This document shows, piece by piece, positions 11,315-14,096 of a DNA stretch of 32,000 bases (the first letter of the stretch is position 1; every line of letters starts with the position of its first letter). Origin of the DNA: Mycolicibacterium smegmatis (GTDB lineage: Bacteria > Actinomycetota > Actinomycetes > Mycobacteriales > Mycobacteriaceae); NCBI RefSeq assembly GCF_001457595.1, contig NZ_LN831039.1:6210001-6242000 (forward strand). Reading direction: 5' to 3'. The position numbers were made by a program, and so were the translations under genes. The notes under the pieces are model-generated. The model was not told where the DNA came from, did no database searches, and saw nothing but the letters and a program-made list of their open reading frames with translations.

Positions 11315-11361
11315 AGATACCTCTGGAAAAGAATGTTCCCGGCCCCTTCGCAGACCTAGGA

Positions 11362-12726
11362 GTGGACGACGTACCAGGCGGGAAATGGGCACTCCCCGAT
11401 AGCGTCCGAGAAACGCTGGAGAGTCCGGCGATCGAACGAATCCCAGATTGGACAGGCGAGGGTAATTCTTATTACAAGCTCACAAATGAGTCTGACCTAC
11501 GCGCATTGACGGAGATGGTCGCCGCAGGAGATGAACGATTTCAGAACGGAAGTTACCTCGACGGTGGCTTGATGAGTAAGGCCACGGAGATTCTTGACGC
11601 TTCTTCTAATCCCGGCCTTGCTGCTACGCATGAATTCGACGGTGTGATGCAGGATATCTTCAAGGCAGCCGGGCGCGATGAGATAGTGAATCACGAGCTA
11701 CTAACCGGGAACTTCAGCTACAACACTCTGGGAGAACCGAGGGATCTGGTACCTGGCGACAACGGGGCGAAGTTTCTCGACAATCTGACCCGCTATCACT
11801 GGGAGGACAACGGCGTCGCCGCACGTACCCTCACAGATTGGATCGACGATTCCGCGAACGGTCGCGACCCTGTGTTAAATAGACTTGCCGGCGAATCCGC
11901 TCACCGGATCGCGGATTATTTGGGTGACAATCGAGACCAACTGATGCGTGGTATCGGAACTCCCGGCACCTGGAACCCTGATCTCATCAGGGGATACGCC
12001 GAGGCCTTGGCCCCCTACCAAGAATCGATTATCGGCGACCGTCGCGAGGCGCCACCGGGATTCGATCTTCTCGACGGGCAGCGACAAGGCGACTACTCGC
12101 AAGCCAGAAATATCTTCGAGATCCTCAACGGCGATCCCGAGGCCGCGAAGTATTTCAATTCGCGGGCGTATGAGAAAATCCTTGAATACCAGCAGTCGAC
12201 CAGCGAACTCATTGCGGAGGGAAGACCTCCAAATGGTAGCGATTTAGGACACGCAGGCCGAATGCTGGGCGTGCTCAATGAGGCAGTCGATAGAGCAGGA
12301 ATAGACACGGGATACGACCTTCGGAAAGACGCGATCGGCCTCGCTATCGGCGAAACCGTGGGCAAAGTTCCAATACTTGGCTCTTTGTCGGAGGGGTATT
12401 TGACCGATCTCCTCCTACCGCAGAAAACCGGTGATACTCCGACGTATCCTCTGACCCAGGTTCAGAACCTGAATCAATGGGTTGTGGCTTCCGCTCTGTT
12501 TGAATCAGGGTTTCCTTACCCAGAGGACGCTCCGATCAATGAATTCGTCGGAACGGATGGCAAGCTTCAGACACCGGAGTACATTCTCGAGCACCAGCCC
12601 GGCTTGATCGAAGACTACTATCAGGCACTGTTTGATTATTCAGACAGCAATAAGTGGGGAACCGTGTTCTCTTCGTTCGACCGCGAATTCGATCAAGGCA
12701 CTGGTTCGGAGAGGGGCCGAAAGTAA
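11362..12726 (+). CDS. Hypothetical protein P1 (454 aa as drawn), paralogue of the downstream lipoprotein; the start is doubtful and the gene may be 5'-truncated by the IS
   Basis: Long ORF in an AT-richer segment. It shares blocks with P2 (AGESAHRIADYLGDNRDQL, NPDLIRGYAEALAPY, ARNIFEIL, LIEDYYQALFDY). No signal peptide or TM helix was seen. Confidence 0.6.
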   Translation: MDDVPGGKWALPDSVRETLESPAIERIPDWTGEGNSYYKLTNESDLRALTEMVAAGDERFQNGSYLDGGLMSKATEILDASSNPGLAATHEFDGVMQDIFKAAGRDEIVNHELLTGNFSYNTLGEPRDLVPGDNGAKFLDNLTRYHWEDNGVAARTLTDWIDDSANGRDPVLNRLAGESAHRIADYLGDNRDQLMRGIGTPGTWNPDLIRGYAEALAPYQESIIGDRREAPPGFDLLDGQRQGDYSQARNIFEILNGDPEAAKYFNSRAYEKILEYQQSTSELIAEGRPPNGSDLGHAGRMLGVLNEAVDRAGIDTGYDLRKDAIGLAIGETVGKVPILGSLSEGYLTDLLLPQKTGDTPTYPLTQVQNLNQWVVASALFESGFPYPEDAPINEFVGTDGKLQTPEYILEHQPGLIEDYYQALFDYSDSNKWGTVFSSFDREFDQGTGSERGRK

Positions 12727-13689
12727 GTGGCGCAGAGAGCAAGTCGTAGATGGGTGGCGGCGCTCACGGCCACAGCCGCGATGCTGTGCTCCTGCAGCTC
12801 GGATACGCCGGACCTACTGACCCCGGTAACTCCGGAGAAATCCCACGACCGCATCACCAACGCGGGCGGCAGCATCTTCCTCGAAGAGATAAGTACCCAC
12901 AAATGGCCCGATGGTGGCAGAGAGGCTGCGTCGTACTTCGATTGGATCCCGCAAGACGCGCGATCGCCCGACCGGGCGACCTCTCAGCAGGCCGGCGAGA
13001 CTGCGCATACTCTTGCAGTCTTCCTTGCCGACCACCGGCAGGCGTTGGAAGCAGTCGGTAACGGCCTGCTCGGGTTACGGAAGGCTCCGGTCGGAAAGGC
13101 CAACCCCCAATTGGTGGCTGCATATGGAGCAGCACTTACCCCTTATCTACCAGCGATCGCGGGGTCTGACGGTTCGCCAGGATTTCCTCCCTTCCAGCAC
13201 TCGACGCCTGAAGATTTCGCCAGAGCACGCAACATTTTCGCGGTGATCGCAACGAATACAGAAGCCGGACGTGAGTTCGTTGAGCGTGCGAGCGAGGATG
13301 CCGAGCGCATCGCTGCAACGGCTGCTCATGACGCGTGTGAACCAGAATCCGCCAAGCACAATGTCGACTCAGCCGTCTTGCGGACAGCCGGCATACTTGC
13401 CGGACTTGCAGACAGCATGAGCAATGAAGGAAGCGGCCCCGAGCGGCATCAAATTCTGGATGACATCAGCTACACAATGGCAGCCGCATGCGTCTCCGCC
13501 GACCCGATGCCCCCCACCAGCCAGATCGCGGACTACATGGAATCCGGGAGATTGTTGACGCCTGACGAGGTGCTTCAGCAACGAGACGAGGGTTTGGAGG
13601 ATTACTACCAAAGCCTGCGGGATTATCTCGCTACCCGCGACATCGAAATCGAGCCATACCTGGAGTGGTACGAAAAGGCGAGAGGGTGA
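12727..13689 (+). CDS. Putative lipoprotein P2 (320 aa), paralogue of P1
   Basis: GTG directly abuts the P1 stop (TAA-GTG). N-terminus MAQRASRRWVAALTATAAMLCSCSS has basic residues, a hydrophobic stretch and an L-C-S-C lipobox-like site. Shared blocks are AGETAHTLAVFLADHRQAL, NPQLVAAYGAALTPY, ARNIFAVI and LEDYYQSLRDY. Confidence 0.65.
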   Translation: MAQRASRRWVAALTATAAMLCSCSSDTPDLLTPVTPEKSHDRITNAGGSIFLEEISTHKWPDGGREAASYFDWIPQDARSPDRATSQQAGETAHTLAVFLADHRQALEAVGNGLLGLRKAPVGKANPQLVAAYGAALTPYLPAIAGSDGSPGFPPFQHSTPEDFARARNIFAVIATNTEAGREFVERASEDAERIAATAAHDACEPESAKHNVDSAVLRTAGILAGLADSMSNEGSGPERHQILDDISYTMAAACVSADPMPPTSQIADYMESGRLLTPDEVLQQRDEGLEDYYQSLRDYLATRDIEIEPYLEWYEKARG

Positions 13690-14096
13690 TTGGTCCCTAT
13701 ATCTCGGCGTCCGCCAGAGAGACTCAAGCCGGAGTCGAGCCGCACAACGACTCCCCTTACGTCGGAATATCAGTGCGGCAGGTCGAACTGACTCAACGCG
13801 ACCCTCGCCTCGCTGCCGATGCTTCTGCGCCCTCACAGGGGCCCCAGAAGGGACCAGCCCCGGCCCCTCAAGTCGACGTCTTCGGCAACTGGTTCATCAC
13901 TGCGTCAAGCAGCGTCGGATGGGGACCGATCACTCGGCCCGTCCTCGACAACTTCCCCACCCCGGAAATCGAGAAGCGCTGCAGCGACTCCATGCCGCAC
14001 AACGAGGCTCAACGCCGGGAGATGATGACCGGGTACAAAGATCAACCTCCGCCCCACGGCGACGCAGTACCAGGCTGGCCTCTCAGGAGCGAGTGA
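13686..14096 (+). CDS. Small Pro-rich hypothetical protein P3 (about 136 aa)
   Basis: GTG at 13686 overlaps the P2 stop as GTGA; an alternative GTG lies at 13665. No recognisable motif was found. Competing antisense ORFs exist, so coding status is uncertain. Confidence 0.35.
   Translation: MIGPYISASARETQAGVEPHNDSPYVGISVRQVELTQRDPRLAADASAPSQGPQKGPAPAPQVDVFGNWFITASSSVGWGPITRPVLDNFPTPEIEKRCSDSMPHNEAQRREMMTGYKDQPPPHGDAVPGWPLRSE

Follow-up and report, generated by a model that had tools for sequence, protein, structure and literature searches.

A decayed low-GC cassette in Mycolicibacterium smegmatis as the probable variable part of a polymorphic locus for EspA/EspE-type proteins and their lipoprotein partners

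Analysing a stretch of 32,000 nucleotides of the Mycolicibacterium smegmatis chromosome (contig NZ_LN831039.1, positions 6,210,001 to 6,242,000; hereafter the window), we characterised a segment of three forward-strand open reading frames, P1, P2 and P3, at positions 11315-14096. The segment and its surroundings comprise the following features:

5808-7571, + strand: backbone gene; its 587-aa product has 11 hydrophobic stretches predicted to be transmembrane helices
9058-11314, + strand: insertion sequence (IS) of the ISL3 family, probably IS1096, 2257 bp, with transposase and inverted repeats
9168-10490, + strand: transposase gene of the IS (NF033550, E = 2e-109)
10498-11250, - strand: second IS gene, PRiA4_ORF3 family (PF07929, E = 1e-51)
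11315-12726, + strand: remaining 3' part of a gene of the EspA/EspE family, encoding residues 286 to ~754 of the full-length protein
11362-12726, + strand: P1 open reading frame, 454 aa
12727-13689, + strand: P2, 320 aa, apparently complete lipoprotein (both ends conserved in homologues; lipobox LCSC)
13665-14096, + strand: P3 open reading frame, 143 aa, chimera of P2 3' sequence and the 3' part of a lipoprotein gene
13687-13696: right-hand breakpoint of the P1-P2 cassette, placed by comparing the window with locus L011 and by the junction sequences
14134-16832: right-hand conserved backbone, composed of the next four features
14134-14520: CMD-family gene
14553-15392: alpha/beta hydrolase gene
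15478-15551, - strand: tRNA-Thr
15615-16832, - strand: holB

A preliminary description of this DNA had depicted the segment as an AT-richer, horizontally acquired and tightly coupled three-gene module of the envelope, located next to a mobile element and near a tRNA gene. The anomalous composition was borne out, with a GC content of 0.579 against 0.682 in the remainder of the window and a z of ~ -5.9 relative to 474 non-overlapping segments of the same length (mean 0.684, SD 0.018, minimum 0.650). GC3 was 0.60 in P1, 0.65 in P2 and 0.69 in P3, versus 0.80-0.93 in the flanking genes. The three reading frames, the mobile element ending exactly at 11314, the tRNA-Thr and the two junctions, TAA-GTG between P1 and P2 and a GTGA overlap between P2 and P3, were also as described. 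By contrast, the view of an intact and translationally coupled trio did not survive, the start GTG of P1 being an internal valine codon and the GTGA overlap lying at a recombination breakpoint.

No known domain had been recognised in the trio, but residues 4-160 of P1 match Pfam PF23275 (TPR_23, EspA-like) at profile positions 83-234 of 234 with 108 bits (E = 8e-31; gathering score 27 bits), the match being partial because P1 is truncated. Its full-length relatives measure 742-761 aa, carry PF18879 (EspA_EspE) together with PF23275, and are named by NCBI 'EspA/EspE family type VII secretion system effector' or 'TPR repeat region-containing protein'. TPR_23 was detected in all 57 long relatives and EspA_EspE in 24 of the 57. 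Aligned with them, P1 corresponds to the terminal 469 codons of a gene of ~754 codons that has lost its promoter and first 285 codons; the GTG at 11362 falls inside this gene, and homology in its frame continues right up to the IS end (IPLEKNVPGPFADLG-VDD...). What the remnant still encodes is the final two thirds of TPR_23, together with an unnamed, alpha-helical domain at the C-terminus. Since the promoter and first 285 codons were removed, it has neither the EspA_EspE (WXG-type) N-terminal secretion domain nor a native start, and the linker is also missing. By these alignments, the window's P1 is an EspA/EspE family member by descent, present as a remnant devoid of the family's N-terminal domain. 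That the 454-aa frame is a complete gene was ruled out by the full-length relatives, the partial TPR_23 match and the 5' part preserved in a nearly identical locus, L001. No sigma-70-like promoter was found for transcription of the remnant P1 or P3 frames, although such a scan is weak evidence in mycobacteria.

The loss of the 5' end can be followed in L001, which is 99% identical to the window. Homology between the two ends at 9057 and restarts at 11315, and L001 carries, in place of the window's 2257-bp IS, a 1018-bp stretch that encodes the missing N-terminal part, homologous to residues 1-293 of the intact relative P0002. The IS is delimited by 26-bp terminal inverted repeats (9058-9083 and 11289-11314, GGCTCTTCGCAG...), and the whole unit occurs on M. 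avium and M. adipatum plasmids at 88% identity. No 8-bp direct repeat was found at its ends (flanks AGTTATCC and AGATACCT), which is consistent with an IS-associated deletion of the 1018 bp. The comparison thus indicates that an IS1096-like ISL3 element and the adjacent deletion removed the promoter and first 285 codons, the IS apparently having deleted ancestral sequence rather than delivered the cassette. Species, family and gene content, rather than a reference-sequence comparison, make the element probably IS1096, with which it shares the ISL3 transposase and a second gene (tnpR in the literature), a length of ~2.26 kb and the host M. smegmatis. The left flank AGTTATCC also fits the published target preference of IS1096, NNPy(A/T)A(A/T)NN, whereas the window element differs in having a 1018-bp deletion instead of an 8-bp target duplication. 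IS1096-mediated rearrangements in M. smegmatis genome evolution have been reported by Wang et al. (2008).

Of the three genes, P2 alone appears intact, because the mobile element removed the secretion end of the system. Its leader MAQRASRRWVAALTATAAMLCSCSS displays a charged n-region, a hydrophobic core and a lipobox L-C-S-C (L20-C21-S22-C23, reading MAQRASRRWVAALTATAAML-CSC), pattern evidence in line with the lipoprotein-type leader proposed earlier. Among 50 short family members, 34 or more had a lipobox at residues 10-40 (40 by a looser pattern), and the family forms 268 clusters at 50% identity, its short forms being lipoproteins by pattern. The suspected paralogy of P1 and P2 was confirmed by a collinear BLASTP alignment (E = 3e-25, 27% identity over ~300 residues) that includes the blocks listed previously, P2 being a paralogue of the TPR_23 tail and C-terminal domain of the long protein, within the region called cargo below. 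For a toxin-immunity pair, a partner paralogous to the cargo would be atypical. The AlphaFold model of P2 is all-alpha (pLDDT 85.5).

P3 belongs to a second lipoprotein family, unrelated to that of P2, and is chimeric. Its codons 1-11 are 3' sequence of P2 read out of frame, while codons 12-143 (from 13696) correspond to the C-terminal 133 residues encoded by a lipoprotein gene of 298-300 aa. That gene has lost its first ~165 codons, and with them the signal peptide, the lipobox and the N-terminal half of the product; no trace of the gene's 5' half was found within the window. Full-length versions in a common 90% cluster, P0196 (300 aa) and P0204 (298 aa), bear the lipoboxes LLSGC and LLPGC respectively; LLAAC and LVAGC also occur in full-length family members, and all four are absent from the window's P3. 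DNA homology between the window and L011 begins at 13696, placing the right-hand breakpoint at or just past the P2 stop codon, within the former P3 gene, with a TGATT microhomology. The junctions indicate that the supposed GTGA-coupled start of P3 is a recombination scar, and that P3 is the 3' stump left when the incoming P1-P2 cassette cut the lipoprotein gene of the cassette that had occupied the site before. As gene fragments, P1 and P3 should therefore both be annotated as pseudogenes, and the copy of the system in the window is largely dead. An envelope association, as suggested in the preliminary description, is nevertheless predicted for the families concerned, two of them lipoprotein families and one a family of type VII substrates.

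The chromosomal setting bears on how the segment arrived. Every species examined has the 587-aa gene, for which no Pfam match was found, on the upstream side of the locus, where it forms context outside the cassette. The same site, from this membrane-protein gene to holB, is occupied without the IS in at least seven other mycobacterial genomes, and a long gene followed by a P2-like gene stands at the syntenic site in loci L003-L009 (L003 and L005 being on the same contig), from which P3-like genes are missing. These comparison loci are mostly metagenomic or short-read contigs, so that single frameshifts in them are possibly assembly errors. Neither an esx cluster nor an EspC/EspF-like small partner gene was found adjoining the locus. 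An island inserted at the tRNA or together with the IS was rejected on the IS-free occurrences at the same site; of the horizontal acquisition proposed earlier, the foreign-looking composition and the cassette-like exchange between strains stand, and the tRNA-integrated or IS-delivered island does not. The three families do recur together in other genomes. An intact, co-translated three-gene operon acquired as a unit with the IS or at the tRNA would account for the low GC, the abutting or overlapping frames, the IS at the left with tRNA-Thr 1.4 kb to the right, and the linkage of the three families elsewhere. It is nonetheless very improbable, given that P1 and P3 are 3' fragments of longer genes, that the IS removed sequence and did not bring the cassette, that the long gene and P2-like pair sit at the same site elsewhere without IS, beside the CMD, hydrolase and holB backbone, and that P3-like genes are not found there.

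Intact alleles reveal what the window has lost. The allele of strain MKD8 (P0179) matches PF18879 (E = 5e-28) and PF23275 (E = 6e-46), in the same order as P0002 (PF18879 E = 3e-23). The intact protein of ~754 aa comprises an EspA/EspE (WXG100-type) domain of ~165 residues, a disordered linker, TPR_23 and a helical domain of ~300 residues, and one or more lipoprotein genes lie downstream. A WxG motif (RWQGSG, residues ~50-55), absent from the window copy, lies in the intact allele, the P0002 model contains long helical hairpins at 54-110 and 116-162, and a profile (A2) searched against the PDB gave a weak EsxA match (E = 0.005); no clear YxxxD/E motif was found by eye in the intact N-terminal sequence.

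Comparison of alleles further revealed that the N-terminal domain is conserved and that, from a sharp breakpoint onwards, different C-terminal regions can follow it. Over the N-terminal 249 nt, L011 and L024 match L001 at 99.6% identity; beyond this point their C-terminal region has no relation to that of L001, and two genes for small membrane proteins and a complete P3 come next. Behind the variant B cassette lie genes for small multi-pass membrane proteins. L017 has a tandem pair of long genes with 94.5% identity over their first 506 nt and no DNA similarity beyond, GC3 falling from 0.87-0.90 in the N-terminal part to 0.64-0.70 in the cargo and 0.59-0.67 in five downstream lipoprotein genes. 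Exchange of the cargo brings with it the lipoprotein or membrane-protein genes downstream, and some related strains and species have tandem arrays that include orphan fragments. In L013, for instance, an orphaned 3' piece of a P1-type gene precedes a P2-like and a P3-like gene, and plasmid pMYCSM01 carries a long gene, a 66-aa gene and a P3-like gene. These alignments indicate a conserved, GC-rich N-terminal domain, beyond which, from about codon 165, low-GC cargo and downstream genes are swapped as cassettes, both from strain to strain and among tandem copies.

This layout also explains the compositional anomaly of 11315-14096, which is that of a low-GC exchangeable cassette whose GC3 is lowered in most species. 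Another explanation would be that relaxed selection allowed mutation to erode the GC of pseudogenes, the locus being pseudogenised in M. smegmatis; however, apparently intact orthologues in other species are also low (GC3 0.62-0.83 versus 0.85-0.94 in their neighbours), GC3 changes abruptly at the N-terminal/cargo boundary within one reading frame, and 99% strain-to-strain identity leaves no time for a decay-driven shift, making this explanation hardly credible.

Taken together, we consider it probable that 11315-14096 is the variable, low-GC cargo-plus-partner part of a polymorphic locus, for whose intact form we infer a secreted cargo and a cognate envelope partner. The N-terminal domain would direct the long protein to an ESX type VII secretion system, and the helical cargo would then act in the cell envelope, where it would bind the co-inherited lipoprotein tethered at the outer face of the plasma membrane. 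The two would form a cognate specificity pair, serving either neutralising, immunity-like protection or self-recognition. This chain of ESX export, envelope action and lipoprotein pairing is a tentative proposal.

Two more specific interpretations were weighed. The locus could encode an antibacterial polymorphic toxin system, in which a toxin delivered by type VII secretion against the envelope of competitors is matched by immunity proteins, namely the lipoproteins (P2, P3) or small membrane proteins. The conserved N-terminal domain with a variable C-terminal part and sharp breakpoint, the downstream genes belonging to the cassette, the orphan C-terminal fragments and strings of lipoprotein genes, the lower GC, and the small multi-pass membrane proteins behind variant B all follow the logic known for LXG toxins of type VIIb systems, and the survival of P2 once the long gene was lost would agree with selection for immunity. 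However, no toxin fold or domain was detected in the cargo by Pfam, NCBIfam, PDB sequence or Foldseek searches, and cargo and P2 showed no catalytic motif and matched only generic alpha-solenoids in the PDB (TM-score <=0.3). Most variants share TPR_23 and the helical architecture at 30-50% identity instead of unrelated toxin folds, P2 is paralogous to the presumed toxin domain, and an IS256-family element disrupts P2 in another strain. The characterised EspA and EspE are not known to be antibacterial toxins. We therefore regard a toxin system as unlikely, and with it, to the same degree, the corresponding view of the window, in which the toxin gene has been decapitated, P2 is an immunity gene that still has its use and P3 is an orphaned immunity stump.

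Alternatively, the locus could be a non-antagonistic envelope or surface module, pairing an EspA/EspE-like surface or secretion-associated protein with a lipoprotein anchor or assembly partner, its polymorphism reflecting self-identity and kin recognition, or avoidance of phages or immunity, rather than killing. EspA/EspE family membership and helical-repeat, binding-type folds agree with such a module, as does the behaviour of cargo and lipoprotein as ancient paralogues that remain adjacent (P2 is 40-46% identical to other P2-like proteins versus 27-30% to cargo domains). M. smegmatis also possesses a polymorphic self-identity gene linked to esx1, Msmeg0070. Against it, the present locus lies outside any esx cluster and has been inactivated in all named M. 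smegmatis strains seen, and is therefore dispensable there; we hold this module to be possible, though on balance doubtful.

Although central among the ESX-1 substrates, EspA and EspE are poorly understood, and mycobacterial type VII systems are usually framed by virulence and conjugation rather than by polymorphic effector cassettes. The locus reveals a family of ~750-aa EspA/EspE-type proteins with a recombination-homogenised N-terminal domain, exchangeable low-GC cargo and co-inherited lipoproteins, and full-text literature searches found no published description of such an EspA/EspE-type polymorphic cassette layout. If these are strain-specific effector/partner pairs, they would constitute a testable type VII-dependent cell-cell interaction system in non-tuberculous mycobacteria, and offer a way into the function of the unnamed C-terminal domain and of two lipoprotein families that are so far orphans.

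Among known systems, EspA (Rv3616c) and EspE (Rv3864), ESX-1 substrates of M. tuberculosis and M. marinum, have the same two Pfam domains in the same order as the intact alleles. EspA and EspE are ~400 aa long, whereas the present proteins reach ~750 aa with an extra unnamed helical C-terminal domain of ~300 residues. The present genes also differ in lying outside an esx cluster, with no adjacent EspC/EspF-like partner, and in being paired, as exchangeable cassettes, with lipoprotein genes, of which one is paralogous to the cargo; the window copy wholly lacks the EspA_EspE domain. Msmeg0070 (mid), the polymorphic self-identity determinant of the M. smegmatis esx1 locus (PMC9040860), resembles the present system in species, high polymorphism between isolates, type VII association and presumed envelope exposure, but differs in locus and proteins, Msmeg0070 being proline-rich with one transmembrane segment. 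The LXG polymorphic toxins of Firmicutes type VIIb systems, with their downstream immunity genes (PMC9600955, PMC9484751), are alike in their conserved N-terminal helical targeting domain (WXG100 superfamily), variable C-terminal part and sharp recombination point, as well as in co-moving downstream genes, tandem paralogues and orphan fragments. There are also differences: the present N-terminal domain is of the EspA/EspE and not the LXG type, the host is actinobacterial, the cargo has no recognisable toxin domain and varies mostly within one helical architecture, and the downstream genes encode lipoproteins, one of them homologous to the cargo. The locus might even be a mycobacterial type VIIa counterpart of the polymorphic effectors of Firmicutes, an idea we find rather unlikely, in which an EspA/EspE-type N-terminal domain would carry exchangeable helical cargo, each inherited with its own lipoproteins, one a cargo paralogue. 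Cargo and lipoprotein would as a pair mediate strain-specific envelope interactions, whether kin recognition or antagonism between bacteria in which the lipoprotein confers immunity, and the window would contain a decayed example.

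The segment at 11315-14096 has a GC content of 0.579, against 0.682 for the remaining window, and lies at z ~ -5.9 relative to non-overlapping windows of equal length (mean 0.684, SD 0.018, minimum 0.650). GC3 is 0.60 in P1, 0.65 in P2 and 0.69 in P3, compared with 0.80-0.93 in the flanking genes. Calculation thus bears out the AT-richer character that the preliminary description had noticed by eye. The three ORFs lie where it had placed them, with both the TAA-GTG and GTGA junctions present in the sequence, a mobile element adjoining the cassette and ending at 11314, and a tRNA-Thr gene nearby. 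The features of this region are as follows.

5808-7571, plus strand: gene of a 587-aa membrane protein with 11 predicted membrane-spanning segments
7573-9042, minus strand: PE-PPE-domain gene (PF08237, E = 7e-77), 489 aa, signal peptide, hydrolase-type
9058-11314: insertion sequence (IS) with 26-bp terminal inverted repeats (GGCTCTTCGCAG…), containing an ISL3 transposase gene (NF033550, E = 2e-109)
10498-11250, minus strand, opposite to the transposase: second IS gene, PRiA4_ORF3 family (PF07929, E = 1e-51)
11362-12726: P1 ORF
12727-13689: P2 ORF
13665-14096: P3 ORF
15478-15551: tRNA-Thr gene

The paralogy of P1 and P2 was also recovered, as a collinear BLASTP alignment over ~300 residues (E = 3e-25, 27% identity), and the P2 N-terminus, MAQRASRRWVAALTATAAMLCSCSS, is a plausible lipoprotein signal. 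By contrast with the claim that none of the three products carries a known domain, residues 4-160 of P1 match Pfam PF23275 (TPR_23, "ESX-1 secretion-associated protein EspA-like, TPR repeats") with E = 8e-31. The unusual composition and the paralogy of the proposed three-gene cassette of unknown function are real and now have an explanation, while the family is a known one: the segment is a partly dead, IS-truncated EspA/EspE / TPR_23 cassette.

The PF23275 match begins at the first residues of P1 and covers only positions 83-234 of the 234-position profile. Homologues of P1 are 742-761 aa long, with PF18879 (EspA_EspE) placed N-terminal to PF23275; one of them is annotated as "TPR repeat region-containing protein" and another as "EspA/EspE family type VII secretion system effector". 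A metagenomic contig with 99% identity (L001) aligns with window positions 1-9057 and 11315-13255, and between these blocks it holds 1018 bp where the window holds 2257 bp. Those 1018 bp comprise a divergent promoter region together with the 5' portion of a long gene. The homology of this portion to residues 1-293 of another species' full-length protein makes the L001 state the ancestral one. In the window, homology in the P1 frame (…IPLEKNVPGPFADLG-VDDVPGG…) continues up to the end of the element. On this alignment, the GTG "start" of P1 is an internal valine codon of a gene whose intact product would be ~754 aa long and whose first 285 codons are missing here. The long gene of the window cannot yield a secretable product. 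No NCBIfam family matched P1, P2, P3, the full-length EspA/EspE-family orthologue P0002 or the 587-aa neighbour, and a promoter and terminator scan with a sigma-70-like model, which is weak evidence in mycobacteria, found none.

The inserted element is most likely IS1096, judging by its ISL3 family, its tnpA plus second gene and its M. smegmatis host. Frequent transposition of IS1096 has been published, and a 2008 study, as cited in later papers, concerned genome rearrangements mediated by it. Plasmids of M. avium and M. adipatum carry the entire unit at 88% identity, and there too the second gene accompanies the transposase. Although publications on IS1096 call this gene tnpR or "resolvase", its product is not recognisable as a serine or tyrosine recombinase. 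The flanks of the element, AGTTATCC and AGATACCT, form no direct repeat, as expected if it was associated with a deletion. Because the IS stands in place of 1018 bp and is missing from L001 and from the other species compared, it was rejected as the carrier of the cassette. Its left end lies upstream of the PE-PPE-domain gene, only 15 bp from the ATG (window 9042-9083), and the 181-bp divergent promoter region of L001 is wholly deleted, so that expression of the PE-PPE gene now depends on sequence within the IS end. The PE-PPE protein ends in a long, acidic, lysine-rich and low-complexity tail in which T, E, D and K abound. Its gene is flanked in M. smegmatis by those of the 587-aa membrane protein and the EspA-like protein; the syntenic loci in other species lack it.

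The 587-aa protein, which has no Pfam or NCBIfam match, is encoded directly upstream of an EspA-like gene in six other genomes, at 70-78% identity. Its gene was considered as a member of the system; being conserved and of normal GC3, it more likely belongs to the backbone, in a position that we take to resemble that of Rv3635 in M. tuberculosis. An island inserted at the tRNA-Thr gene was rejected, as the CMD-family, hydrolase, tRNA and holB genes form a conserved backbone.

P2, a paralogue of P1, is predicted to be a complete lipoprotein, and both its N- and C-termini are kept in homologues from M. hubeiense and metagenomes. A P2-like profile searched against 1.84 billion representatives, with clustering at 50% identity, retrieved 268 clusters of two architectures. 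Short forms (~300-330 aa) match from about residue 15-30 onward and carry a lipobox in at least 34 of 50 cases, and long forms (~700-850 aa) match at residues ~400-620, all 57 carrying TPR_23, with EspA_EspE (24/57) or WXG100 (6/57) at the N-terminus. P2 shares 40-46% identity with the P2-like proteins of other species and only 27-30% with the cargo domains, the variable parts of the long proteins; P2 and cargo are therefore old paralogues that stayed adjacent. The P2 structure model is all-alpha (pLDDT 85.5, pTM 0.83), and comparison of this model and of full-length P0002 with the PDB returned nothing nearer than generic helical repeats. PDB sequence searches with P2-like proteins, full-length P3 and the C-terminal region of allele B (described below) gave no match. 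Tat export of P2, suggested by an SRRW motif, was dismissed because the trait is not general in the family: RR occurs in only 7 of the 40 members with a lipobox.

P3 has genuine but longer homologues (228-300 aa), and its own 90% cluster includes full-length proteins of 298 and 300 aa, which begin with MRRLGAVLLAAALLPGC… and MMKHIGALLFGIALLSGC…; the full-length proteins of this family are predicted lipoproteins. The window P3 corresponds only to residues ~166-298, and no trace of the 5' half of its gene was found anywhere in the window. DNA homology to L011, an M. smegmatis contig with full-length P3, begins at 13696, a few bases past the P2 stop and with TGATT microhomology. The first 11 P3 codons are an accident of this junction, and therefore so is the GTGA overlap that had been taken to couple P2 and P3. 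P3 as it stands in the window cannot be exported, and P2 may be the only product of the cassette that is still functional. Downstream, L011 lacks ~63 bp of the alpha/beta-hydrolase gene (window 14715-14779), an in-frame length polymorphism, and is otherwise 98.5% identical.

Comparison across strains and species revealed a polymorphic locus. Over 249 nt of the N-terminal coding region, L011 and, independently, a second contig (L024) are 99.6% identical to L001, then diverge from it completely past …GEYEQLT (~codon 165), at the border between the N-terminal helical hairpins and a disordered linker in the P0002 model. This shared N-terminus with unrelated C-terminal regions implies at least two alleles in M. 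smegmatis: allele A, with TPR_23, a C-terminal domain, P2 and the P3 stump, and allele B, with another C-terminal region (~310 aa, no Pfam or PDB match), membrane proteins and intact P3. The P3 stump implies that the A cassette took the place of the left part of a B-like arrangement. Three of the compared loci are set out below.

L011 1-2085, and L024 (allele B): 3' of the C-terminal region, a 120-aa three-helix membrane protein, a second small membrane ORF and full-length P3
L017 1-10099 (related species; also L016, L018-L021): tandem array of two ~755-aa EspA/EspE-TPR_23 genes and five lipoprotein genes (249-336 aa)
NC_019957.1 250447-253538 (L010, plasmid pMYCSM01 of Mycobacterium sp. JS623): 687-aa TPR_23 protein, 66-aa protein, 275-aa P3-like lipoprotein

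Allele B, which looks like an effector with membrane-protein partners, runs after full-length P3 into the same CMD-hydrolase-holB backbone. In L017, the same N-terminal domain (80% identical) heads both tandem genes, whose first 506 nt are 94.5% identical before all DNA similarity ceases. GC3 there falls from 0.87-0.90 in the N-terminal parts to 0.64-0.70 in the cargo, and the five interspersed lipoprotein genes have 0.59-0.67. These include P2-like and P3-like ones; two others (249 and 259 aa) fall outside the P2 family and have no clear P3-family match. Reduced GC3 of cargo and lipoprotein genes recurs in nearly all compared species, which makes low GC a trait of the variable cassette and rules out pseudogene decay or an IS effect as its source.

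At the syntenic chromosomal site of L003-L009 (L003 and L005 being one contig), a long gene is followed by a P2-like gene, with no P3-like gene there. The order in L012 is long gene, P3-like gene, P2-like gene, and in L013 a P2-like and then a P3-like gene come directly after the orphaned 3' end of a P1-type gene. The tightly packed operon of pMYCSM01, a mobilisable 394-kb plasmid with zeta-toxin and WhiB genes close by, is the only plasmid-borne relative found; in L012 and L013 the long proteins carry its 66-aa sequence as a C-terminal fusion.

Read from these sequences, the locus is decaying in M. smegmatis, through several independent lesions besides the window deletion. The mc2155 protein ABK70411.1 has a P1-like start and a tail, …LLPQKTGSSQLRV (ending GSSQLRV), that is a translated IS inverted repeat, placing a second IS copy after P1 codon 357. 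This copy (at 12432/12433 by comparison) is missing from the window, whose arrangement differs from the mc2155 reference. The MKD8 allele keeps its N-terminus and is broken into two products, of 626 and 108 aa. In L001 the reading frame shifts near codon 78, and the end of an IS256-family element (L001 12558-12695), 93-95% identical to copies on mycobacterial plasmids, cuts into P2 after codon ~176. L022, L023 and L025 share another frameshift, with an N-terminal deletion in L022. Some single-base lesions could be assembly errors; the IS events cannot. None of the M. smegmatis copies compared was intact. Species with an intact locus include Mycobacterium sp. PS03-16, M. hubeiense and Mycolicibacterium sp. 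XJ1819.

These comparisons demonstrate the architecture, the truncations, the exchange of cassettes and the linkage of long genes with both lipoprotein families. WXG100-type and EspA/EspE N-terminal domains have an established role as type VII substrates. From this domain type, an ESX system would export the intact long protein, whose helical cargo would then act in the envelope, where topology and co-inheritance suggest that the lipoprotein, anchored outside the plasma membrane, binds it as a cognate partner. The two may form a toxin and immunity pair, a reading favoured by the layout of the locus, which recalls LXG systems (PMC9600955, PMC9484751). They may instead be a recognition or structural pair, as three observations favour: searches recovered no toxin fold, a single architecture is common to most variants, and cargo and partner are paralogues. 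For this second reading M. smegmatis offers a precedent in Msmeg0070, a polymorphic self-identity gene linked to esx1 (PMC9040860). Our searches found no literature on PF23275, PF18879 or the MSMEG locus, nor any description of exchangeable cargo-plus-lipoprotein cassettes in the searchable literature, and this organisation of the EspA/EspE family appears undescribed. Set beside known systems, the EspA/EspE cassettes represent a variation on the polymorphic effectors of type VII secretion.
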